Shown here piece after piece: positions 7,139 to 19,776 of a stretch of 64,000 nucleotides of DNA. How positions within the stretch are numbered: the stretch's first letter is position 1; every line of letters starts with the position of its first letter. The notes under the pieces were generated by a model. That model had not been told where the DNA came from. It searched no databases and saw only the letters and a program-made list of their open reading frames with translations. This DNA is from Pseudomonadota bacterium. GTDB taxonomy: Bacteria > Bdellovibrionota > Bdellovibrionia > Bdellovibrionales > Bdellovibrionaceae. The stretch lies in contig JBEGVH010000006.1 of the NCBI GenBank assembly GCA_041178425.1, forward strand, positions 219,643 through 283,642, in the 5' to 3' direction. A program made the position numbers and the translations under genes.

Positions 7139-8293
7139 TTAGCCCTTAACCGAAATTTTAGATGCGGCTTTGATGGCCAAGCTCTTCGCTTTCTCAACGG
7201 TTGAGCTTCTTGATAAAACCACAGCCATTCGTCGAAATGGCCTCATCGTTGGCTTACCAAAAATGCGCACATCGACATCTTTTAATTCGAGCGCTTTGTC
7301 GACTCCAGAGAATTTTGGTTGTTTCTCTGACTCTTTGGTTGCAAGAACAACAGCCGATGCACTAGGGCCGTAATACTTTATGTCTGTGATCGGCAATCCT
7401 AAAACCGCACGAGCATGAAGATCAAATTCAGATAGGTTTTGCGAGATCAAAGTCACCATTCCCGTATCGTGAGGACGCGGTGATAACTCAGAGAAATAAA
7501 CATCATTTTTTGTAATAAAAAATTCGACACCAAATATTCCCGCTCCGCCAAGACGATCGGTCATTTTTTTTGCCATTTTTTGAGCCTTTTTTAATAACTC
7601 AGGCTTTATTTTTGCTGGCATCCAAGACTCGCGATAATCACCTCGTTCTTGCCGATGACCAATCGGGGCAACAAACAGGGTTTTCCCTTTTCGTTGCTTC
7701 ACCGTTAGTAAAGTGATCTCGAATTCAAAGGGAATAAACTCTTCAACGATTACTTTTTTCTTATCTCCGCGCATCCCTTCACAAGCATAATTCCAGGCCG
7801 TTTTTATTTGCTTTGACGATTTGATGATCGATTGCCCTTTGCCCGAGGATGACATGACCGGTTTAATCACACAAGGGTAACCAATCTTGTCTGCGGCAGC
7901 GATCAACTCGACTTCACTCTGAGCATAAGCGTAGTTTGCCGTCTTGAGTTTAAGTTCATGACTAGCTACATCACGAATAGCATCCCGATTCATTGTAAGA
8001 TGGGCCGCTTCTGCTGTTGGAATAATGGTGAAGCCTTTGTTTTCAAGCTCCAGGAGTTTCTCTGTGCGAATCGCCTCAATCTCAGGAACAATCAAATCAG
8101 GTTTATGCTTTTTTACTAATCGATCAATTTCGTCCCCATCAAGCATGTCGATTACTTCATAGGTATCCGCCACCTGCATGGCAGGAGCCCCTTCGTATCG
8201 ATCAACGGCGATGACATATTGGCCTAATCTTTTTGCTGAAATCACAAATTCTTTTCCTAATTCACCTGAGCCCAAAAGCATAATTTTTTTCAT
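7139..8293 (-). CDS. purT: Formate-dependent phosphoribosylglycinamide formyltransferase
   Basis: [23 protein letters not shown] and [11 protein letters not shown] signatures. Confidence 0.97.
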
Positions 8294-8946
8294 AAACTTT
8301 CTCCTGTCATTAAGATCGCACGAACGGGGGAGGCTTCTGCCCCTTCGAGCTTCAAGGGGAGCGCAATAAGCTGGTACCGACCTGACGGAACTCTTTCTAA
8401 AGTTAATCCCTCAAGAATGGCGATTCGATTTTTATAGAAGGTCTGGTGGGCGTCGAGCGTTTTACTGTTGGAATGATCCATCGACGGGGTATCAATTCCG
8501 ATCAATACAACACCCTTTTGTGAAAGCCAATCGATTGTTTCAACACTCAAGTGAGTGAATTCGTCTTGCCAGACACTCAGATCGCGAAGAGAGTGGCTTT
8601 TAAATAAAATGCGAGGTGCTGAAATGGTCACACCAGAAAGATCAGAAGGATTTACAGCTCCACGGCAATGAGTCACATCAATCACTTGGCAGTCGCCAAG
8701 ATAGGTTTCGAGTGAGCATTGATCAATACTCACTCCGTCTTGATGGTAGTGCGATGGAGCATCAGCATGAGCTCCAATATGAAGAGTTGTTTGAATTGAG
8801 CTAAGACTAAGATGGTTCCCATTTTTAAAATCTAGTGAAATTCTTTTTTCGAAAGGAACATCACCAGGAAAAACTGCCAGCCTATTATTAATCGGAGGAG
8901 AAATATCAAAAATCTGCCGCCTGAACTTTGGAGATTGTATCGTCAA
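8290..8946 (-). CDS. kynB: Kynurenine formamidase (arylformamidase, cyclase family)
   Basis: [24 protein letters not shown] and ASPVRA motifs; TDO nearby. Confidence 0.85.
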
Positions 8947-10190
8947 CCTAACAACTCCTCAACTCTCGGTTTAATTTTCTCCATGAACACTTTCATATTC
9001 TTTTTTATCTGCTCATTATTGTGATTATTAAAATCAAACCAAAGCATGAGTCTATCATCTCGATGATATTTTTTGACGATCGCCTGTGCCACTTCCTCGG
9101 GGTTTCCTGCAATAGAATTCTCAACGGCGCCCGCTACTTTTTTTGGATCGAGTGTTTTTTCCATGGCGACCCAATAATTTTCCCAAGCCTTTTTTGAATG
9201 TTCTCGAGCCTTCGCTGACTGTTCTTGAGGCGACAGACCTTCGCTGTCATCGACAAAAATCAGAGCTGTGCGAGGCATGAGAGACCGACTCCAAGCGCCA
9301 CCCTGAGGATGAAAATCACGAGTCATGCGCCGGTGAGTTTCCTCTATGACATCGGCAGGGGTGATCGAAAGATTAAAAACTCCCGTAGGCAGAATTTCGT
9401 TGGCCATTCGCTGGGTTTCTGGATCATGAGACCCAATAGTCAGCCGCAACTTATCGAGTGGCGCTTCAAAAGGGATGATTCCTACCTTATCAAAGACAAA
9501 AAACGGAAGATGAAGGATTTTTTCTCCATCCCAACGGCGCCAATCTTCTTTGGCCAAACCTTGCACTTTCTCCCAGGTGTTTTGATCTCGAAAGTCTTCT
9601 CGACGAAGATAAATGGGGCCAATCTCCTTGCTCGCAAACTTATCGCCGCGCAAGGCCTTGAGCATAATGAGGGTCGCTTCTTGAAAAACCTTGTTTTTAA
9701 CTACATCCCATGCAGCTTCATCCACTAAATCTCGCGGACGAATTCCATAAGCATGATAAGAAAACGGAAAACGACCAGCAGCAAAACCAAATTCTAAAAG
9801 GCGCTTTTCGTTCGGGCGGAGCGCATGGAGCGAAAGAAAGGTTTTTACAGCTTCAGCATGAGCCAGAGGGCCACCATTAGATAAAATATTTCGAATGGCC
9901 GATCCAACATTGAGATTTTTGGTTTGACTAAAAATAATATGAGCAAGCTGGAGTATGTCAGTATTAAGTCCAATTTCCCCTTTGAAGTGTGGTATCACAG
10001 CGCCAGGGTTTTCTTTCTGAACCTGACAAGACAAATGAGTTTCCGCAAGCCAGGCGGTACCAAAACCGAGTTGATCGGCCAACTGCACTTGATCGAAAAA
10101 GTTTTCCCACATGGTTCTCTCTGTTGGGAGATAACCATCCACCTCTGTTTGGCAAATCGAAAAAAAGATGTCGTATTTCATGGCAGACAT
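8943..10190 (-). CDS. LLM-class (luciferase-like) flavin-dependent oxidoreductase
   Basis: ADQLGFGTAWLAETH, FAAGRF and AGNPEEVA motifs; start uncertain (10190 or 10181). Confidence 0.85.
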   Translation of the reverse strand: MSAMKYDIFFSICQTEVDGYLPTERTMWENFFDQVQLADQLGFGTAWLAETHLSCQVQKENPGAVIPHFKGEIGLNTDILQLAHIIFSQTKNLNVGSAIRNILSNGGPLAHAEAVKTFLSLHALRPNEKRLLEFGFAAGRFPFSYHAYGIRPRDLVDEAAWDVVKNKVFQEATLIMLKALRGDKFASKEIGPIYLRREDFRDQNTWEKVQGLAKEDWRRWDGEKILHLPFFVFDKVGIIPFEAPLDKLRLTIGSHDPETQRMANEILPTGVFNLSITPADVIEETHRRMTRDFHPQGGAWSRSLMPRTALIFVDDSEGLSPQEQSAKAREHSKKAWENYWVAMEKTLDPKKVAGAVENSIAGNPEEVAQAIVKKYHRDDRLMLWFDFNNHNNEQIKKNMKVFMEKIKPRVEELLG

Positions 10191-10339: not shown

Positions 10340-11719
10340 TTAATCTTCGTAGTCGATGGGCTCAAGAGGGGGTGTGTTTAATGGCGCAACCGTGTAGTCC
10401 GGAACAATGACACCCGACATTCCTGACGCTGGCAAAGATTTAGGATGGGCATACTTGTAAAATCGCCCTGTATCGACCAAGAAATGCCCATTAAACTCGC
10501 TACCGTAAATGCGATAGATATTGCCAAGAGCTCCTGTGCCAGCGCCAATAAAGCCTGGCGAAAAACGATATTTTCTCACAGTCGGATATTGGTCAATATT
10601 GTAAACACCTTCTTCTAGCCATTCAGAGGCCGGAACACCTCGGTCTAAGACTGCCTGACGCTCGATCGTAGCGGCTCTTGAATCATTGATGGGGCTCGAC
10701 TTGGTAAGAATATAGAAAAAAGGAACGCGCTGTTTCTGTGATTTATAGCTATACAGCGAAGGCTGCCAAACCGCTTCTCTGGCATAAACACGAATAATCG
10801 GCGTGCCCGCTGCTATAATATGGCGAAGGAAAGCAACGGCCCCATTTTCAAGGCGAGTGCACCCTGAGCTACGAGCATCATTAATGCTGCTTAAGAAAAG
10901 ATTACGTGTAACATCAATAAACTTAGGGCCATCAGAACCCCAACCGGCTGTTCCATGAATCCATTGGTAGTTGGCCTTGGGTCCTAGAATGGCAGCGAAC
11001 CATCCGAAGGCTCCTCTCATTTGACCATTTTTATTGGGCATCACATCGCTATCAAACCAGTCACTAAAATCAGAGCCTGGAGGTGGCACTGGTGGATAGT
11101 CTTTAGAGTACCAAGCTGGATAATGGCCTTCACCATCTTCGTGAAATTTATCCCAGTACTGGATTTTATTTACGCCCAGATGTGTGTACCATTCCTCTGG
11201 AGAGAAAAGGCTATTCTTTCTTCGACCCACCACCATGTCGGATTCAAAAACCAAGCGATGAGGGCATCCCGCATACTTTGTGCACTTTTCATAAACTCGA
11301 GTCACTTCAGTCGCAACGTTTTGCACCACAAAGTATTGAGTCGAAATATTATTCTGTGAATTCTTTGCTGATAAATACTCAGCGCTCACATAGAGGCGAT
11401 CGTAGGCGTTAAGTGACACTCCCCTGCCCGAAACTACTTTCACTTCTACAAAGGGATTTGCGTCGTCGAGCAAACTAACAATCGAGACGAGATCATTCCG
11501 GTGCAGACGCCCAATGGCCTCTTCTTCTTTAACAGGAGCAAGACGAACTTTAATGGTATCAGCATCCACAAAGTAATTCAGACCAACTTTTAATTTTGCC
11601 TTTGCCGATGGTACGACTGGTTTAGAGTCCGAAAATAAAAAAGACTGTGCCATGGAAACTTCGCCCACCGCGAGAATGCTGGCACAAAGAAAACCCACCA
11701 AAAAAGACCACTGAATCAT
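10340..11719 (-). CDS. Secreted L,D-transpeptidase (YkuD) with N-terminal SH3-like region
   Basis: Signal peptide; VVGR, IHGT...SSGCTRL catalytic motif. Confidence 0.8.
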   Translation of the reverse strand: MIQWSFLVGFLCASILAVGEVSMAQSFLFSDSKPVVPSAKAKLKVGLNYFVDADTIKVRLAPVKEEEAIGRLHRNDLVSIVSLLDDANPFVEVKVVSGRGVSLNAYDRLYVSAEYLSAKNSQNNISTQYFVVQNVATEVTRVYEKCTKYAGCPHRLVFESDMVVGRRKNSLFSPEEWYTHLGVNKIQYWDKFHEDGEGHYPAWYSKDYPPVPPPGSDFSDWFDSDVMPNKNGQMRGAFGWFAAILGPKANYQWIHGTAGWGSDGPKFIDVTRNLFLSSINDARSSGCTRLENGAVAFLRHIIAAGTPIIRVYAREAVWQPSLYSYKSQKQRVPFFYILTKSSPINDSRAATIERQAVLDRGVPASEWLEEGVYNIDQYPTVRKYRFSPGFIGAGTGALGNIYRIYGSEFNGHFLVDTGRFYKYAHPKSLPASGMSGVIVPDYTVAPLNTPPLEPIDYED

Positions 11720-11949: not shown

Positions 11950-12819
11950 ATGAAAGAAGAAAATCTGAATCCCGAAATATCCCATGTCAGTGATACGGCT
12001 CTTTGGGTGGCGACTTATCGAGCCGAAGAAACAAAGCGAAAAGATGCCCTTTTTAAAGACCCTTTAGCAGAAATCTTAGCCGGAGAAAGAGGCAAAAGAA
12101 TTGCCAAGAAAATGCGGGCAACAAAGTACCTCTCGTGGTCGGTCATCATTCGTACAGCCACCATTGACGACCTGATTGAAGAAGCACTCAGCGAGGGCGT
12201 TGATACCGTTGTCAATCTCGGTGCGGGTTTAGATACTCGTCCGTATCGCATGAACCTTAATCGGAATCTCCTTTGGTTCGAGGCGGATTTTCCAGACATC
12301 ATTGATCTCAAAAACGATCGTCTCAAAAACGAAAAACCCAACTGTCAAATCGAGCGAAGAGCCATTGATTTAACCAATCCAGAAGCACGACAAGCTTTTT
12401 TTCAAACCGTCAATGCTCAATGTCGCAAGGCCTTGATTATCACCGAAGGTGTTATTCCCTATCTCTCGAATGAGGACGTGGCAGCCCTCGCAAAAGATCT
12501 TCGCCAACACAATCATTTTAAATTTTGGATTCTTGAATATTTTCCCTCTGAACTTCCGCTTTCTCGTCCATTCAAAAAACTGCAATCGAAACTTACGAAG
12601 GCACCGCTTATCTTCAAACCCAAAGATTGGAACGTTTTTTTTAATCAACTCGGATGGAGAACCAAAGACCTTCGTTTTCTCAATGAGGAAGCCGAGAAAT
12701 TACATCGCCCCTTTCCTCTCTCATGGTGGCAAAAATTAGGACGATTTTTTCTGCGCAAAAAGACCAAAGAAAAGCTAAGGCAAGCTCTCGCCTATGCGCT
12801 GATTGAACCAAATCTTTGA
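11950..12819 (+). CDS. SAM-dependent methyltransferase (LCM/TcmP-like)
   Basis: TALWVATYRA, FKDPLA, VNLGAGLDTRPYR and ITEGV motifs. Confidence 0.9.
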   Translation: MKEENLNPEISHVSDTALWVATYRAEETKRKDALFKDPLAEILAGERGKRIAKKMRATKYLSWSVIIRTATIDDLIEEALSEGVDTVVNLGAGLDTRPYRMNLNRNLLWFEADFPDIIDLKNDRLKNEKPNCQIERRAIDLTNPEARQAFFQTVNAQCRKALIITEGVIPYLSNEDVAALAKDLRQHNHFKFWILEYFPSELPLSRPFKKLQSKLTKAPLIFKPKDWNVFFNQLGWRTKDLRFLNEEAEKLHRPFPLSWWQKLGRFFLRKKTKEKLRQALAYALIEPNL

Positions 12820-12907: not shown

Positions 12908-13693
12908 ATGTTGTTGGATCTTACCAACAAAAGGGCTTTAGTGTGTGGTGCATCCCAGGGGATTGGCGAAGCGACAGCTCATGCTCTCGCCGATATGGGC
13001 GCCGAAGTCATTCTTATTGCTCGAACCGGTGATAAACTCGAGGCCATTCGACAAAAACTCTCCAATGCTAAAAATCAAAAACACCAAGCGCTGGCCTTCG
13101 ATCTCACGTCGCGCGACCTCTTAACCAATCACCTTAATGATTGTCTTGCTAAGGGGCCCATCAGTATCGTTATCAATAATGCTGGCGGCCCTAAGGCGGG
13201 CTCCTTGCTTGATGCTAGCGACGAAGATTTTCTCAGTGGCTTTCATGCGCACATTCTTGCGGCCTCCCTTATTGCAAAAAAACTAGCTCCGGGAATGAAA
13301 GAGCAAAAGTTCGGTCGCTTTATCAATATAATATCAACATCGGTAAAAGCACCTATTGCCAATCTCGGGGTTTCAAACACCATCAGAGGTGCTATGGCGA
13401 ATTGGGCTAAATCGATGGCCACCGAACTGGCTCCCTACGGCATAACCGTCAATAATGTGCTCCCTGGTTACACCGAAACCCCACGCTTAGAAGCTCTGGC
13501 TCAGGCGGCCGCCCAAAGACAAAACAAAACCGCCGATGAAATTAAGCAAACCTGGAAGGCTGCGACACCCGCAGGTCGCTTTGCCTCCCCTGCCGAAGTT
13601 GCCGACGCCATCGCTTTTTTAGCCAGCCCCTCGGCCGGCTTCATCAATGGCATCAACCTCCCTGTTGATGGAGGTCGAACACCATGTCTTTAA
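12908..13693 (+). CDS. SDR family oxidoreductase
   Basis: GASQGIG and NNAGGP; canonical YxxxK replaced by SNTIR; GGAGG RBS. Confidence 0.9.
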   Translation: MLLDLTNKRALVCGASQGIGEATAHALADMGAEVILIARTGDKLEAIRQKLSNAKNQKHQALAFDLTSRDLLTNHLNDCLAKGPISIVINNAGGPKAGSLLDASDEDFLSGFHAHILAASLIAKKLAPGMKEQKFGRFINIISTSVKAPIANLGVSNTIRGAMANWAKSMATELAPYGITVNNVLPGYTETPRLEALAQAAAQRQNKTADEIKQTWKAATPAGRFASPAEVADAIAFLASPSAGFINGINLPVDGGRTPCL

Positions 13694-15132
13694 TCGAAAT
13701 TAAAAATTTTATTGGTGGCGAGTTTTGTTCGGCTAAATCGAATACGACGATTGAAAATTTTGAACCCGCTACAGGCCGTGTTTACTCCACCATTCCGCGC
13801 TCCCATACCGCCGATGTTAATGCTGCCGTTCAAGCGGCAAAAAAAGCATTTCCGGCATGGTCTTCAACATCGGCCGAAGAGCGGGCCCAATATCTCAATA
13901 AAATAGCTGATGGTATTGAAAAACGTCTTCTTCAATTTGCTAGGGCAGAATCTCGCGACCAAGGGAAGCCGGTATGGTTGGCCGAGTCCATGGATATCCC
14001 TCGCGCGGCCCATAATTTTCGTTTTTTTGCTGGTCAGATTCTTTATCAAAAAGATGAAGCTCACGAAATCTCGGGCAAAGCTTATAATTTCACCCTGCGA
14101 AAACCGGTTGGTGTTGCGGGCCTTATCTCTCCATGGAATTTACCCCTTTATCTTTTAACTTGGAAAATTGCTCCTGCCATTGCCTTTGGTAACACGGTGG
14201 TTTGCAAACCCTCTGAACTGACTCCAATGACGGCCTTCTTGCTCTGTGAAATTTTTCAAGACGTTGGCCTCCCGCCAGGAGTCGTTAATATTCTCTTTGG
14301 CTATGGAGCCGAAGCGGGTGAACCAATTGTTCAGCACCCAGAGGTGCCCCTAATTAGTTTCACCGGAGGAACCACAACAGGTAAGCGGCTAAGTGCCAGC
14401 GCCGCTCCATTGATCAAAAAACTATCGCTTGAGCTGGGTGGAAAAAACGCCAATATGATTTTTGCCGATTGTCATCTTGATGAAGCCATCGAAACGTCTC
14501 TGCGTTCGAGCTTTCTGAACCAAGGTGAAATCTGTCTCTGTGGATCTCGCCTCTTTGTGGAGCAATCCATATACACAACTTTTGTTGAGCGCTTTGTTAG
14601 CAAAGTAAAAAACCTTAAGGTTGGCGACCCTAAAAATGCTGACCACTTTATTGGTGCTCTCGTCAGTAAAGATCACCTCGAGAAGGTGCGATCGTATGTG
14701 ACCTTGGCTCAGCAAGAGGGTGGCAAAATTGAAACTGGATTAGAACCAATTCCCCTCGATAGCGATCACCAAAATGGATACTTTATGCGTCCAACAGTGA
14801 TCACGGGTCTTTCTTCTCATTGTCGTGTCATGCAAGAAGAAATTTTTGGGCCTGTGGTCACCATTGCTCCTTTTTCCACAGAAGAAGAAGTCATCGCTAT
14901 GGCCAACTCAGTTGAGTATGGATTGGCCGCCAGTCTTTGGACAAAAGACATTCAAAGGGTTCATCGTATGGCACGCGCCTTAGAGGTTGGAACACTTTGG
15001 GTGAACACTTGGATGATGCGTGATTTAAGAGTGCCCTTTGGTGGAATGAAAATGTCGGGAGTAGGCCGCGAAGGTGGTGTGCATTCTTTAGAGTTTTTCA
15101 CAGAAGCCACTAACGTTTGCGTAAAATACTAA
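13684..15132 (+). CDS. 2-aminomuconate/hydroxymuconate semialdehyde dehydrogenase (ALDH8A1-like)
   Basis: ISPWNLPLYLLTWK, LELGGKN, NQGEICLCGSR and EEIFGPV motifs; operon context. Confidence 0.9.
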   Translation: MSLIEIKNFIGGEFCSAKSNTTIENFEPATGRVYSTIPRSHTADVNAAVQAAKKAFPAWSSTSAEERAQYLNKIADGIEKRLLQFARAESRDQGKPVWLAESMDIPRAAHNFRFFAGQILYQKDEAHEISGKAYNFTLRKPVGVAGLISPWNLPLYLLTWKIAPAIAFGNTVVCKPSELTPMTAFLLCEIFQDVGLPPGVVNILFGYGAEAGEPIVQHPEVPLISFTGGTTTGKRLSASAAPLIKKLSLELGGKNANMIFADCHLDEAIETSLRSSFLNQGEICLCGSRLFVEQSIYTTFVERFVSKVKNLKVGDPKNADHFIGALVSKDHLEKVRSYVTLAQQEGGKIETGLEPIPLDSDHQNGYFMRPTVITGLSSHCRVMQEEIFGPVVTIAPFSTEEEVIAMANSVEYGLAASLWTKDIQRVHRMARALEVGTLWVNTWMMRDLRVPFGGMKMSGVGREGGVHSLEFFTEATNVCVKY

Positions 15133-15183
15133 AACTTTTTTTAAACAAAGCACTACAAAAGTAAAATTTAGGACAGGTGAATT

Positions 15184-16128
15184 ATGGCAACAACGAGCAA
15201 AAAAAACACAGGCAAAGGTGCGATCGTCGCGGGATGCTTGGCTCCCCATCCACCCCACTTGGTCTATGCAGAAAACCCACCTCAAAATGAACCGCGTTCC
15301 GAGTGTGGCTGGGAAACTCTTCGCTGGGCCTATGAATCCATGCGAAACGATTTAAGCCAAATTGAACACGATGTCCTCGTGATCTTTTCTCCTCATTGGA
15401 GAACCTATGTTGGCACTCATATTCTTGCAACCCCCCATTTAAAATCTTTGTCTGTGGATCCTATCTTTCCAAATCTCTTTCGCTACCACTACGACATCAA
15501 CGTCGATGTAGATCTTGCCAACACAATTCATGACGTTTGTCAGAGCAAAAATATTCCTACCAAACTTATGACTAACCCTGATTTTCGCGTAGACTATGGC
15601 ACCATCGTCACAGGACACCTTACGAATCCAAAATGGGACAAACCCATCGTCACCCTTTCAACTAATTGTGTGGCATCTTACTACAACCTTGATCGCATGC
15701 AGGCTCTCATGATGGAGCTTGGCGCCGCAACAAAAGAAGCCATCGAAAAAAGTGGCAAAAAAGCCATTCTTCTTGCAAGCCACTCTCTCTCTCATCGCCA
15801 TTTTACCGTCGAAAATGAAATTCCCGAAGACATGAGCAAAGAGCACATCACCAATCACAGCCTCTACTTGTGGGACATGAAAATGATTAAACTCATGAAA
15901 GAAGGGCGATCTCGCGAGATGATTGACCTAATTCCTGACTTCACAGAGCAAACTATTGCTGAGTCAGATTCAGGAGGTCTGACTTGGATGATGAAGGCCA
16001 TGGACTTTCCGACCTACCCAGCAAAAGTTCACGGTTACGGAACAGTGATTGGCACTGGTAATGCCGTTGCCCATTGGGCACCACCAACAACAACAAAACC
16101 TCAGCCTCTCGCAGAGAAAGGAATCTAA
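15184..16128 (+). CDS. 2-aminophenol 1,6-dioxygenase beta (catalytic) subunit-like, LigB family
   Basis: HPPHLVYAENPPQNEPRS.CGWE.LRWAY, SPHW, SHSLSHRH and YGTVIGTGNA match AmnB/CnbCb-type subunits. Confidence 0.88.
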   Translation: MATTSKKNTGKGAIVAGCLAPHPPHLVYAENPPQNEPRSECGWETLRWAYESMRNDLSQIEHDVLVIFSPHWRTYVGTHILATPHLKSLSVDPIFPNLFRYHYDINVDVDLANTIHDVCQSKNIPTKLMTNPDFRVDYGTIVTGHLTNPKWDKPIVTLSTNCVASYYNLDRMQALMMELGAATKEAIEKSGKKAILLASHSLSHRHFTVENEIPEDMSKEHITNHSLYLWDMKMIKLMKEGRSREMIDLIPDFTEQTIAESDSGGLTWMMKAMDFPTYPAKVHGYGTVIGTGNAVAHWAPPTTTKPQPLAEKGI

Positions 16129-16130
16129 GG

Positions 16131-17129
16131 ATGGCCGCTTCTCATTCACAAAACCCCATTATTAAAGGTTATGTTTTACCGGGCCTCATTCAGCCCCTTC
16201 TCACTCCGGATGCAAACCCTGGATACCGAAAAGTGAGAAACGCTTTTGAACAAGTGCGGGCTGAAATTGAAAACACCGATGCTGACCTGATTCTCATTTA
16301 CAGCACCCTTTGGCCCTCAATTCTTGGGCATCAGATTCAGGCCCTTCCAGAGCCTGAATGGACACTCGTTGAAGAAGAATTTCACGATCTAGGTTCTGTG
16401 CCCTACAAGCTCCGTATCGATAGTGAATTTGCCGAGTGTTACAATAAACACGCCCTCCAGAGAGGATTGCAAAGTCGAACTATTGCTTATCATGGTTTTC
16501 CTATTGATAGTGGATCAATCGTGGCTTTGCAGCTGATCAACCCAAACAATCGGCTTCCGGCCGTTATTGTTTCGAGCAATATTTACGCTGATCGTGCTGA
16601 GACCGTGGTGCTCGCTAAAGCCGCCGTATCTGCTCTTAAAGAGCAAGGCAAGCGCGCCGTGGCGGTGATCATCTCGACTTTATCAAATCGCCTCCATACG
16701 AATTATATCGATCCAAAAGATGATTGCATCAATTCTCTCAAAGACCAGGAATGGAACTTGAAAATTCTTGAGTTCCTCGAAAAAGGGCGCCTCGAAGATG
16801 TTGCTCAACTCTCTCGACAAATTCACCGCGAAGCGCGAGTCAAAAAAGTTTCCAACTTTAAGCCTTTCTGGTGGCTCTCTTCTGTGATGGGGGCCCACAA
16901 TCGCTACACCGGTAAAGTTTTTGAATATCAACCTATTTATGGAACAGGATGCGCCGTCGTTGGTTTAACTCCCGCTCCCCATGCTTCTCGTGACCTTGAA
17001 TTCGATGAGGATGCTCCAGAACATTACACGGGCGAACGGAATGTTCTTAGCGCCAGCGGGGAATCGATGGCCGATTTTTCCTCTCAACAAGTGTTATGTA
17101 ACACAGATGATGAGGGCATAGAGCAATGA
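16131..17129 (+). CDS. 2-aminophenol 1,6-dioxygenase alpha subunit-like, with acidic C-terminal tail
   Basis: LIYSTLW, GFPIDSG and YQPIYGTG in a LigB paralog lacking the His ligands; adjacent to the beta subunit. Confidence 0.8.
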   Translation: MAASHSQNPIIKGYVLPGLIQPLLTPDANPGYRKVRNAFEQVRAEIENTDADLILIYSTLWPSILGHQIQALPEPEWTLVEEEFHDLGSVPYKLRIDSEFAECYNKHALQRGLQSRTIAYHGFPIDSGSIVALQLINPNNRLPAVIVSSNIYADRAETVVLAKAAVSALKEQGKRAVAVIISTLSNRLHTNYIDPKDDCINSLKDQEWNLKILEFLEKGRLEDVAQLSRQIHREARVKKVSNFKPFWWLSSVMGAHNRYTGKVFEYQPIYGTGCAVVGLTPAPHASRDLEFDEDAPEHYTGERNVLSASGESMADFSSQQVLCNTDDEGIEQ

Positions 17130-18220
17130 AAAATCCAGATCTCAAAATCTCAGATGTTTACCCCTCCAGTCCGTTTGGAGAAAAAATTCCAGGAATTCCC
17201 ACTGGCCGGGACGTCGAATGGCAGCCACTCATCGATTACCGTCGTAATGGTGTGAGTGAAAACACCATTCACGGAGCCATTGCTTGGTACAGCGGCGATG
17301 AATTGATTCACTCGTTCGGAGGAAACGTTCTTTGTTATGGTCGCAGCATGATGAAACTTTTTTATATGAAAGTGTTCAGCCAAGAACTTGCAAACACTAC
17401 CACTTGGCAACAAAAAGCCATCAGCGTTTCAAGTCATAATGGGGCCGCCGAACACATCGAGGCAGCGCAATCCCTATTGACTGAGAGTGAATGGGGACTC
17501 ATGCAAACCCCACTTGATCTACCCTTAGTACAATTTGGCCGACAGGTGCGACGCCCTCGCCGCTGGTACAATAACTCCTCTGGGCACCACGCAGCGATTC
17601 TTCTTGGTTGCCGAATGAAGGGCTGGAATCGCGCGGGCTACACACTGCCTAATCACGAAGTTTATAAAGAATACGTTCAAGTTGTTCGTCGCTATTTAGG
17701 TGCCGACTGGAAACCACTCCGTATCGCCCGCGATGGTGATGGCCTGCCAACGGTAGCAATGACCGTCAACGAACTGGCTCGTTGTTATGCGGGCCTCGCT
17801 AAACATCGCGAACAAGATTGGGTCTGGGAAAGCATGGTTCGCCATCCAGACTTAGTGGGTGGTTTTAATCGTCTTGATACAACAGTGATAAAGTCTTGCC
17901 ATGGGCAAGTGATTGCCAAAGAGGGCGCCGACGGGCTTCTTGGAATGGCGATCTCGCATCCTGACTATCCCAACGGTCTTGGCGTAGTGATTAAGATTGC
18001 TCACGGATGGAACCCACAAGCCACCTGGTACATTGCAAGAGGTATTTTAGGAGTGCTAGGCTTTGAGCTGCGCAATCCTTATCCCTTACGCCGACAAAAA
18101 GCCTTTTTGGTTCCGCAAATTGTGCCTGATAAATTTGTAAAAAAACTCGAAACAATTCCAACGTGGGACGAATGGGATCCTGATCACGATCGTTGGTACA
18201 TGGGAGATTTAAATGTCTGA
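17126..18220 (+). CDS. L-asparaginase II (class 3) family homologue, divergent
   Basis: RSMMK, SSHNG, NNSSGHH, DGDGLPT and AKEGADG motifs; overlaps both neighbours. Confidence 0.8.
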   Translation: MKNPDLKISDVYPSSPFGEKIPGIPTGRDVEWQPLIDYRRNGVSENTIHGAIAWYSGDELIHSFGGNVLCYGRSMMKLFYMKVFSQELANTTTWQQKAISVSSHNGAAEHIEAAQSLLTESEWGLMQTPLDLPLVQFGRQVRRPRRWYNNSSGHHAAILLGCRMKGWNRAGYTLPNHEVYKEYVQVVRRYLGADWKPLRIARDGDGLPTVAMTVNELARCYAGLAKHREQDWVWESMVRHPDLVGGFNRLDTTVIKSCHGQVIAKEGADGLLGMAISHPDYPNGLGVVIKIAHGWNPQATWYIARGILGVLGFELRNPYPLRRQKAFLVPQIVPDKFVKKLETIPTWDEWDPDHDRWYMGDLNV

Positions 18221-18641
18221 AACTCAATCTGAAAAAATCAACACCAATAAAGCACCAGAACCTGTCGGAGCTTATCCTCATGCTCGCCGTTTTGGCGACC
18301 TTCTTTTTTTGTCGGGCGTCGGCCCTCGCAAACCTGGAACAAAAAAAATTCCAGGGGTTGAACTCGACGATAATGGAGCTATCGCATCTTATGACGTGGT
18401 TACTCAAACAGAGTCAGTGATTGAAAATATTCGCATCATTTTAGAAGCCTCCGGTAGCTCTCTCGATAAAATTATCGATGTGCAGGTTTTTCTCACCAAC
18501 ATGAAAGCTGATTTTAAGGCCTTTAACGAGGTTTACGCAAAACACTTTACTTCTATTGGTGCTACTCGCACAACGATTGAGGTAGGAGCTCTACCAACAC
18601 CCATCGCTGTTGAATTTAAAGTGATTGCCGCGGCTAAATAA
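18213..18641 (+). CDS. RidA-family 2-aminomuconate deaminase-like protein
   Basis: APEPVGAYPHARR.GDLLFLSG and RTTIEVGALPTPIAVEFK motifs; operon context. Confidence 0.88.
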   Translation: MSETQSEKINTNKAPEPVGAYPHARRFGDLLFLSGVGPRKPGTKKIPGVELDDNGAIASYDVVTQTESVIENIRIILEASGSSLDKIIDVQVFLTNMKADFKAFNEVYAKHFTSIGATRTTIEVGALPTPIAVEFKVIAAAK

Positions 18642-18663
18642 TTTTTATCGAGGAGTTTATTCA

Positions 18664-19776
18664 ATGATTAAAAATCAAAAACCTGTTTATTATCCTGATT
18701 ACCTTCAATTATTTAAACTCTTGGATAGTCAGCATCCAAAAAGTCTTGAAGCCGGCAAAGAGGCTCACGATGAAATGCTCTTTATCGTTGTTCACCAGGC
18801 CTATGAACTTTGGTTTAAGCAGATTCTTCATGAACTAAAGCCGGTGCTCACCATTTTCAACAAAGAGCGCGTTGAAGAGCATGAACTTGGGTTTATCTTG
18901 GCGCGCTTCGAGCGGGTGATTAAAATTCAATCCCTGTTTCAGTCTCAGTTAGAAGTTCTCGAAACCATGACTCCTATGGATTTTCTTGAGTTCCGCGATC
19001 TCTTAATTCCAGCTTCTGGCTTTCAAAGCGTTCAGTTCAAAACGATTGAAACAGTGATGGGCCTAACAACTGCCACTCGGTACACCGTCGACCGCGAGTC
19101 TTTCTTGGGCCGCCTCAGCGCCGGAGATAAAAAACAAATCGAAGACCTTGAAAAACATGACTCTCTCTTTAAATTAATGGAGCGATGGCTAATTCGACTC
19201 CCCTTCACCGAAAAAACCAGCTTTGTTTTTTGGCAACAGTACGAAGCGGCTGTTGATGCGATGCTCGCAAAGGATGAAGCCGTCATTAATGACAACCCTC
19301 ATACGAGCGATTTCGAAAAAAATATTCAAAAGGATTATCTTCAAACCACAAAACGAACCTTTCAGAGTCTTTTCGATGATACAATTCACGATGAACTGAT
19401 TTCAAAGGGTCAACGACGACTTGCTCGAAAGGCCATTCTCAATGCCTTGTTTATCTTTCTCTACCGCGACGAGCCGCTGATGCACCTGCCGTACAAGCTT
19501 TTAAATGCCCTCATTGATATTGATGAAAATTTCACCAGCTGGCGCCATCGCCATGCCATGATGGCTCACCGAATGCTCGGAACAAAAATTGGAACCGGCG
19601 GAACGTCAGGGCAGGAATACCTAAAAAAGGCAGCAGACCAAAACCGAGTTTATCTCGATCTTTTTAATCTATCGACCTTCATTATTCCAAAGTCAGCACT
19701 TCCGGTGCTTCCTCCTTCTTTAAGGCAAGAACTCAATTTTCACTATGCCTCAAAAACAGAAGGGATGAACCATTGA
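18664..19776 (+). CDS. kynA: Tryptophan 2,3-dioxygenase (long form)
   Basis: HDEMLFIVVHQAYELWFKQ, PASGFQS.QF and WRHRH...GTGGTSG motifs; GAGGAG RBS before ATG 18664. Confidence 0.96.
   Translation: MIKNQKPVYYPDYLQLFKLLDSQHPKSLEAGKEAHDEMLFIVVHQAYELWFKQILHELKPVLTIFNKERVEEHELGFILARFERVIKIQSLFQSQLEVLETMTPMDFLEFRDLLIPASGFQSVQFKTIETVMGLTTATRYTVDRESFLGRLSAGDKKQIEDLEKHDSLFKLMERWLIRLPFTEKTSFVFWQQYEAAVDAMLAKDEAVINDNPHTSDFEKNIQKDYLQTTKRTFQSLFDDTIHDELISKGQRRLARKAILNALFIFLYRDEPLMHLPYKLLNALIDIDENFTSWRHRHAMMAHRMLGTKIGTGGTSGQEYLKKAADQNRVYLDLFNLSTFIIPKSALPVLPPSLRQELNFHYASKTEGMNH

Follow-up and report, generated by a model that had tools for sequence, protein, structure and literature searches.

How does a bacterium degrade tryptophan when its genome encodes the entry into the kynurenine pathway and the exit from it, while the enzymes of the middle section are missing? 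This question is raised by a stretch of 64,000 nucleotides (the window; contig JBEGVH010000006.1 of assembly GCA_041178425.1, positions 219,643 to 283,642) from a member of the Bdellovibrionaceae. As the initial annotation had described, a tight operon of seven ORFs occupies positions 12908-19776 of its + strand, in the order short-chain dehydrogenase/reductase (SDR), aldehyde dehydrogenase (ALDH), LigB beta, LigB alpha, Asparaginase_II, RidA and tryptophan 2,3-dioxygenase (TDO), with an intergenic spacing of -10 to +51 bp. A second unit on the - strand comprises the genes for a luciferase-like monooxygenase (LLM) and the kynurenine formamidase KynB as well as purT, their ends overlapping. The proximity of kynB had likewise been recognized, but the LLM gene beside it, which overlaps the start of kynB and is a core member of the system, had been left out. 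Taken together, the data indicate that tryptophan is very probably broken down by a non-canonical route, which is best read as kynurenine catabolism in a variant form that would involve two new activities.

Canonical enzymes and their replacement

The source assembly consists of 43 contigs and is 100% complete. It contains no match to kynureninase (KynU) and none to 3-hydroxyanthranilate dioxygenase (3-HAO, HAO), which the same model detects in 19/19 canonical genomes. Kynurenine 3-monooxygenase (KMO) is absent as well: three matches to FAD_binding_3 each span only ~40 N-terminal positions, and tblastn of the source genome with KMO, KynU, HAO and ACMSD (decarboxylase of 2-amino-3-carboxymuconate semialdehyde, ACMS) queries from the canonical clusters of relatives returned only two short N-terminal KMO motif matches of 38-56 residues. 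The two ACMSD-like proteins among these queries had no tblastn match, the single PF04909 gene included. Hence, the earlier observation that KynU, 3-HAO and ACMSD are missing from the window extends to the complete genome and, since KMO is absent from it, 3-hydroxykynurenine is without a canonical source here.

Co-occurrence was assessed in 221 genomes of the phylum that are at least 85% complete. TDO is encoded in 149/221, KynU in 50/221 and LLM in 35/221 of them, and the overlap of LLM and KynU is 0, against 11.7 genomes expected among the 149 TDO-positive ones. All LLM genomes possess TDO, KynB and the asparaginase-II-like domain (35/35 each, one copy of the latter being cut by a contig end), and none encodes KynU, 3-HAO or a KMO orthologue (0/35 each), in agreement with the previously suggested route free of pyridoxal phosphate (PLP) that replaces the canonical middle steps. 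The KynU controls, which were chosen genomes and include the source of the KMO query, contained KMO and HAO throughout (19/19 each); KMO-like matches in genome G144 reach merely 31-33%. AmnB, the beta subunit of 2-aminophenol dioxygenase, occurs in 27/221 genomes, every one an LLM genome. Seven LLM genomes, the closed genome G097 among them, keep LLM and hydrolase without AmnB, SDR and hydratase, and the five of them that were searched for LigB proteins, G097 included, contain none of any kind. Because the whole ring-cleavage half is missing from these seven genomes, the hydrolase should act before ring opening. In an eighth LLM genome without AmnB, G124, the alpha gene lies at a contig edge and the beta gene is probably unassembled. 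Outside the phylum, three archaeal and two acidobacterial genomes of unstated completeness encode TDO (5/5) and no KynU above cut-off (0/5). Neither KynU nor LLM is present in 64/149 TDO-positive genomes, among them those of most members of the family to which the window belongs.

Relatives of the hydrolase were collected as 501 stretches from 185,579 species genomes, and locus counts refer to the best 80. These loci belong to Bdellovibrionota, Poseidoniales archaea, Myxococcota and Holophagae, the closest being Bdellovibrionota records. They contain alpha (76), beta (70), RidA (70), ALDH (55), SDR (46) and LLM (43), with many loci ending short; among the 52/80 loci in which 8 kb or more of upstream sequence precedes the hydrolase, beta and alpha are each present in 51, RidA in 47, ALDH in 41, SDR in 39 and LLM in 36. 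The gene set is thus conserved. The commonest order is SDR-LLM-ALDH-beta-alpha-hydrolase-RidA; SDR immediately precedes LLM in 33/42 loci carrying both, and alpha stands immediately 5' of the hydrolase in most close loci. No other enzyme family recurs widely at these loci, an exonuclease gene coming next, followed by lineage-specific neighbours. TDO is a member of the operon in the window, as had been stated, but elsewhere it lies within only 3/80 loci (kynB: 4/80), still being encoded in the genomes.

More compact arrangements were found as well. Genome G186 carries a minimal LLM-hydrolase-kynB-TDO cassette. Seven fetched loci encode a hydrolase-KynB fusion downstream of a distantly related LLM, which it follows immediately in six of them, and TDO lies opposite; the order in G108 is beta-alpha-RidA-ALDH-hydratase-decarboxylase-LLM-fusion-TDO. 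The cassette and the fusions argue that LLM and the hydrolase form an upper unit independent of the dioxygenase. Holophagae possess TDO-SDR-LLM-ALDH-RidA, with kynB next in 1/2 cases. One family has HAO-ACMSD-KynU in the very place that LLM takes elsewhere, with the decarboxylase on one side and the fusion on the other (L146, L147 versus L092, L094, L151), a substitution seen in G084 and G148. Furthermore, the canonical clusters of the phylum carry similar ALDH (47-56% identity) and RidA (49-63%) in 12/12 fetched cases. Co-occurrence, slot swap and the common ALDH and RidA therefore suggest that LLM, hydrolase and AmnBA replace KMO, KynU, HAO and ACMSD.

Some further features of these clusters were recorded. 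Canonical clusters L166, L168-L172 and L174-L177 have one gene of the FAA-hydrolase family beside kynU and an SDR 33-38% like that of the window, and in the archaeal clusters L011-L016 a TPR protein is encoded between SDR and LLM. Record L033 (CALQIT020000049.1), titled Streptomyces griseus, is probably mislabelled; it holds a Bdellovibrionota-type cluster with a hydrolase 83% identical to that of the window.

Proposed reactions and the enzymes assigned to them

Gene identities, which rest on homology, together with co-occurrence, fusions and exclusion are the observations from which we infer the reactions. We favor, as reasonably probable, a Baeyer-Villiger oxidation followed by hydrolysis, which would convert kynurenine to L-aspartate and 2-aminophenol, the latter being processed by AmnBA, AmnC, AmnD and the SDR as reductase. 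Formation of kynurenine by TDO and KynB would open the upper module, a step well supported by homology. In order to become the substrate of AmnBA, kynurenine has to gain one oxygen and to lose its side chain. LLM, depending on reduced flavin mononucleotide (FMNH2), would insert this oxygen between ring and ketone in a Baeyer-Villiger (Dakin-type) aryl migration, producing an ester between 2-aminophenol and the beta-carboxyl of aspartate; a rearrangement to N4-(2-hydroxyphenyl)-L-asparagine may follow. Migration is easy for an aryl group with an ortho-amino substituent and yields 2-aminophenyl beta-aspartate, from which an O-to-N shift leads on to N4-(2-hydroxyphenyl)-asparagine. The latter is isobaric with 3-hydroxykynurenine, both being C10H12N2O4. 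The asparaginase-fold enzyme would subsequently release L-aspartate and 2-aminophenol via a beta-aspartyl-serine intermediate; its fold suits this step because ester and anilide are both beta-aspartyl derivatives, and with the oxygen supplied by LLM, hydrolysis would be ordinary ester or amide chemistry. Alternatively, LLM might act on N-formylkynurenine first, with deformylation by KynB thereafter. In the lower module, AmnBA would open 2-aminophenol, and ALDH and RidA would lead to 2-oxohex-3-enedioate, again well supported by homology, which the SDR may reduce towards 2-oxoadipate; other lineages would employ a decarboxylase/hydratase pair instead. The seven genomes restricted to the upper module would still gain aspartate. 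Aspartate as the likely leaving amino acid and 2-aminophenol as intermediate, the second option of the initial annotation, along with a natural role for AmnBA, are thereby retained as predictions.

The predicted structure of LLM (pLDDT 87) is a luciferase-like TIM barrel. Luciferases and RslO1 ranked highest (Z 27-29), ahead of MsnO8 and the type II Baeyer-Villiger monooxygenase (BVMO) 3,6-DKCMO (Z ~24) and of RutA, MsuD and SsuD (Z 21-22). Similarity to 3,6-DKCMO (Z 23.7 at 12-14% identity) thus falls below that to luciferases and RslO1, and a single-sequence search of the PDB with LLM gave weak matches only. The group C luciferase-like monooxygenases (LuxA, RslO1, MsnO8, 3,6-DKCMO) have the TIM-barrel fold in common with LLM (Z 23.7-28.7), but LLM is only 12-21% identical and without characterized orthologue. 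According to PMC12449030, group C enzymes attack electrophilic carbons, Baeyer-Villiger enzymes among them. The SDR was considered as the flavin reductase of LLM and disfavored: it is absent from 22/35 LLM genomes, alternates with the decarboxylase/hydratase pair and stays with ALDH in the window.

The hydrolase matches the class 3 L-asparaginase ReAV with Z 31.5 (rmsd 3.7 Å over 297 residues, ~23% identity). ReAV numbering was mapped onto it by motif from PMC11024299 and PMC12292245, which report the Ser-Lys tandems and associated residues as essential or highly conserved. Equivalents of ReAV Arg47, the Ser48-Lys51 and Ser80-Lys263 tandems, His139, Tyr156 and Asp187 are kept in the window hydrolase, and R73, S74, K77, S103, H155, Y172, D203 and K265 are invariant in an alignment of 42 rows. 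Fold and both tandems are therefore common to this protein and ReAV/ReAIV (PF06089), whereas clade, genomic context and, in the window subgroup, the zinc ligands differ: Cys135/Lys138/Cys189 of ReAV correspond to S151/H154/D205. The third ligand position is Asp in 120/120 closest homologues, which are 77-86% identical to the window protein. Exchange of either cysteine (C135A, C189A) inactivates ReAV, as reported in PMC11024299. The altered zinc site was discarded as a marker of new function, because archaeal and further hydrolases of the pathway clade retain both Cys. In a quick tree, from which 5 duplicate or partial rows had been removed beforehand, the pathway hydrolases separate as a clade from the ordinary class 3 asparaginases. 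The stand-alone form is always accompanied by LLM (23/23). Acanthopleuribacter pedis and Sulfidibacter corallicola also possess an orthologue of the hydrolase. A role as substitute formamidase was discarded, KynB being present in 35/35 LLM genomes, and a plasmid search yielded only distant asparaginases among the best 8 of 77 matches. Fusions with intact active sites in canonical-route genomes are found at L146:8214-9815, L147, L141, L142, L143, L144, L148 and L149.

The adjacent beta and alpha LigB genes are orthologues of solved 2-aminophenol 1,6-dioxygenases, from which activity on 2-aminophenol is predicted. The beta subunit matches 8IHG and 3VSG with E 1e-104 and 7TXY with E 4e-96, and its residues H22, H71, Y138, H204 and E260 are kept in 78-79/79 relatives. 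We take H22, H71 and E260 to be the counterparts of the iron ligands His13, His62 and Glu251, and H204 and Y138 those of the catalytic His195 and Tyr129 of the solved enzyme. Among solved proteins, the ALDH is nearest to 2-aminomuconate 6-semialdehyde dehydrogenases (E 3e-141; other ALDHs 4e-127 or weaker). As to the last step, SDR is present in 13/35 LLM genomes and a DmpE/DmpH-like pair in 15/35, with both in 0; among the 27 AmnB genomes the numbers are 13 and 14, again never both, and the division follows taxonomy. Fusions of alpha with the Rid deaminase are encoded in L097 (L097:14413-15918), L103, L104, L155, L157 and L160, and L108:5131-7495 (G157) contains two RidA copies of equal length (136 aa), ~2 kb apart, downstream of the hydrolase.

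Table 1. Genes of the proposed pathway and their neighbours in the window.
Gene product	Position	Strand	Basis or remark
purT, formate-dependent GAR transformylase	7139-8293	-	overlaps kynB end
kynB, arylformamidase (kynurenine formamidase)	8290..8946	-	PF04199; TIGR03035 218.2 bits, slightly below cut-off 223.05; fused to asparaginase-like domain in relatives
LLM, flavin monooxygenase of the luciferase-like type (group C); candidate kynurenine Baeyer-Villiger monooxygenase	8943..10181	-	PF00296
L,D-transpeptidase-like gene	10340-11719	-	between LLM and SDR
SAM methyltransferase	11950-12819	+	between LLM and SDR
SDR, proposed 2-oxohex-3-enedioate (or 2-aminomuconate) reductase forming 2-oxoadipate	12908..13693	+	PF13561; function inferred
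2-aminomuconate 6-semialdehyde dehydrogenase-like ALDH (AmnC)	13684..15132	+	nearest solved relatives
2-aminophenol 1,6-dioxygenase beta subunit (AmnB/CnbCb-like)	15184..16128	+	8IHG, 3VSG, 7TXY matches
2-aminophenol 1,6-dioxygenase alpha subunit (AmnA/CnbCa-like)	16131..17129	+	7TXY_A E 7e-41; 3VSG_A E 1e-37
Serine hydrolase with class 3 asparaginase fold; candidate hydrolase of beta-aspartyl aryl esters/anilides	17126..18220	+	PF06089
Rid-family 2-aminomuconate deaminase-like protein (AmnD)	18213..18641	+	6IZH 2-aminomuconate deaminase, E 1e-25
Tryptophan 2,3-dioxygenase (TDO)	18664..19776	+	PF03301 E 3e-100

The ATG start of LLM agrees with homologues, and its frame is open as far as 10235. 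The L,D-transpeptidase-like and methyltransferase genes look like later insertions, because LLM and SDR are directly divergent in L007 and L010. A scan for promoters and terminators gave counts at chance level (19 vs 16.4; 15 vs 14.7). Linkage of purT to kynB, whose reaction yields formate, also occurs in L005, L007, L010 and L110 and possibly reflects formate salvage; in L166, purT lies near the canonical cluster.

Competing explanations

Several observations weigh against the Baeyer-Villiger route. LLM has no close characterized relative and remains below all NCBIfam cut-offs; with 12-21% identity to solved enzymes, its fold leaves the reaction unfixed. The cluster encodes no flavin reductase: PF01613 is absent, and a single PF03358 gene lies on another contig. 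Mutual exclusion of LLM and KynU has a Fisher p of 6.5e-8, which is overstated as relatives are not independent, and the search for ACMSD covered the source genome only. The window beta subunit departs from characterized aminophenol dioxygenases in its access loop, which lies close to the active site, and in residues R205 and D262, and may therefore have room for a larger substrate. Finally, the hydrolase-KynB fusion also occurs in 9/50 KynU genomes that use KMO, KynU and HAO and lack LLM and AmnB. A profile search for a hidden distant LLM in canonical-pathway genomes gave 0/13, all 8 complete copies of the fused hydrolase have intact catalytic and zinc residues, and relaxed selection was not found, the dN ratio to KynB being 1.20 (8 pairs) vs 1.19 (7 pairs) in LLM genomes. 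Intact and conserved without LLM, the fused domain should therefore have an LLM-independent use, and it may double as an asparaginase in these genomes.

The divergent beta subunit would suit the main proposal of the initial annotation, according to which 3-hydroxykynurenine is opened by the dioxygenase and the product then loses aspartate through C-C hydrolysis by the hydrolase. An enaminone could reasonably undergo retro-Claisen cleavage, and the position of alpha directly before the hydrolase fits as well. However, 3-hydroxykynurenine as substrate is at odds with the lack of KMO orthologues in LLM genomes, and hydrolysis after ring opening with the seven genomes that retain LLM and hydrolase but no dioxygenase. 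Moreover, KynB, the fusion partner of the hydrolase, belongs to an early step, and the beta subunits of other clusters (L092, L151, L159) agree with characterized 2-aminophenol enzymes at the access-loop, R205 and D262 motifs, so that we regard this sequence of events as quite improbable. If, as in the second option of the initial annotation but with LLM included, LLM were instead a non-homologous kynurenine 3-hydroxylase, the hydrolase could cut the aryl-carbonyl C-C bond of 3-hydroxykynurenine, which would likewise give aspartate and 2-aminophenol and would account for the presence/absence data equally well. Yet PhlG and other hydrolases of aryl C-C bonds have a different fold, and their substrates are strongly activated polyphenols. 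A ReAV-type site is that of an amide hydrolase, and the electrophilic carbons that group C enzymes attack, as described in PMC12449030, speak against ring hydroxylation. This explanation is unlikely in our judgement.

Conservation of the fused domain in the nine canonical-pathway genomes raises the question of whether the asparaginase-like protein has another job, as true asparaginase or repair enzyme, with the labile aryl ester produced by LLM hydrolyzing unaided or an alkyl-side insertion giving an anthranilate ester. We consider this doubtful: the domain accompanies LLM in every genome, its stand-alone form occurs solely with LLM, and an ordinary class 3 asparaginase is already encoded on contig C10 of the source genome. 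In addition, the window copy lacks Cys135 and Cys189, which ReAV needs for asparagine, and no additional oxygenase is at hand to convert anthranilate to 2-aminophenol. The scarcity of TDO and kynB at the close loci, along with the general abundance of TDO in the phylum, might even indicate that the core serves another aminoaryl substrate and that its link to tryptophan genes is incidental. This we regard as very improbable, given the KynB fusions, TDO beside LLM in several lineages including Holophagae, the exclusion with KynU, KMO and HAO, and the ALDH-RidA pair shared with canonical clusters.

Relation to known pathways and significance

The predicted Baeyer-Villiger route shares its entry enzymes (TDO, KynB) and those of the exit (ALDH, Rid deaminase) with the canonical kynurenine/3-hydroxyanthranilate pathway (KynA, KynB, KMO, KynU, 3-HAO, ACMSD, the 2-aminomuconate semialdehyde dehydrogenase AMSDH, deaminase). 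It differs in the middle, where LLM, hydrolase and AmnBA stand in place of four enzymes, and in its predicted product, which is aspartate rather than alanine and CO2, without a PLP step. As no ACMS would be formed, a quinolinate branch to NAD would be missing. The subunits beta and alpha, the ALDH and the deaminase are orthologous to those of the pathway for meta-cleavage of 2-aminophenol (AmnBA/CnbC, AmnC, AmnD, AmnE/F; ARO microcompartment locus), and some relatives carry the decarboxylase and hydratase, too; here, in contrast, they are tied to tryptophan genes and two uncharacterized upstream enzymes. For the ARO loci, the natural precursor of 2-aminophenol is stated to be unknown in PMC10470539, whose text contains none of the terms tryptophan, kynurenine, luciferase or asparaginase.

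A precedent for the upper module is provided by Comamonas testosteroni KF-1, in which, according to PMC3746432, the gene of an aryl-ketone BVMO (SAPMO) adjoins that of a sulfophenyl acetate esterase, such that neighbouring genes turn a ketone via an aryl ester into phenol and acid, as proposed here. The substrate is a different one, and the hydrolase of the window has an asparaginase fold. SAPMO is a one-component FAD enzyme and not of the luciferase fold. Steps beyond 2-aminomuconate are treated for eukaryotes in a preprint (bioRxiv 10.64898/2026.06.05.730449). No description of the present tryptophan route was found in the literature searched, with most subscription journals lying outside its coverage.

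On balance, we lean towards a widespread PLP-independent tryptophan pathway in Bdellovibrionota, Myxococcota, Holophagae and Marine Group II archaea, with two new activities (kynurenine Baeyer-Villiger monooxygenase and aryl beta-aspartyl hydrolase), N4-(2-hydroxyphenyl)-asparagine as a new metabolite and 2-aminophenol as a natural intermediate, and with the amn/cnb enzymes of pollutant degradation derived from such amino-acid catabolism. If true, tryptophan catabolism would gain a new middle section in microbes that feed on protein, predatory bacteria and abundant marine archaea included, and functions could be given to a luciferase-like family that lacks annotation as well as to proteins that carry the label 'asparaginase'. 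Such a pathway would also provide a natural job for enzymes known from pollutant degradation and a natural source of 2-aminophenol, the question left for the ARO loci in PMC10470539.

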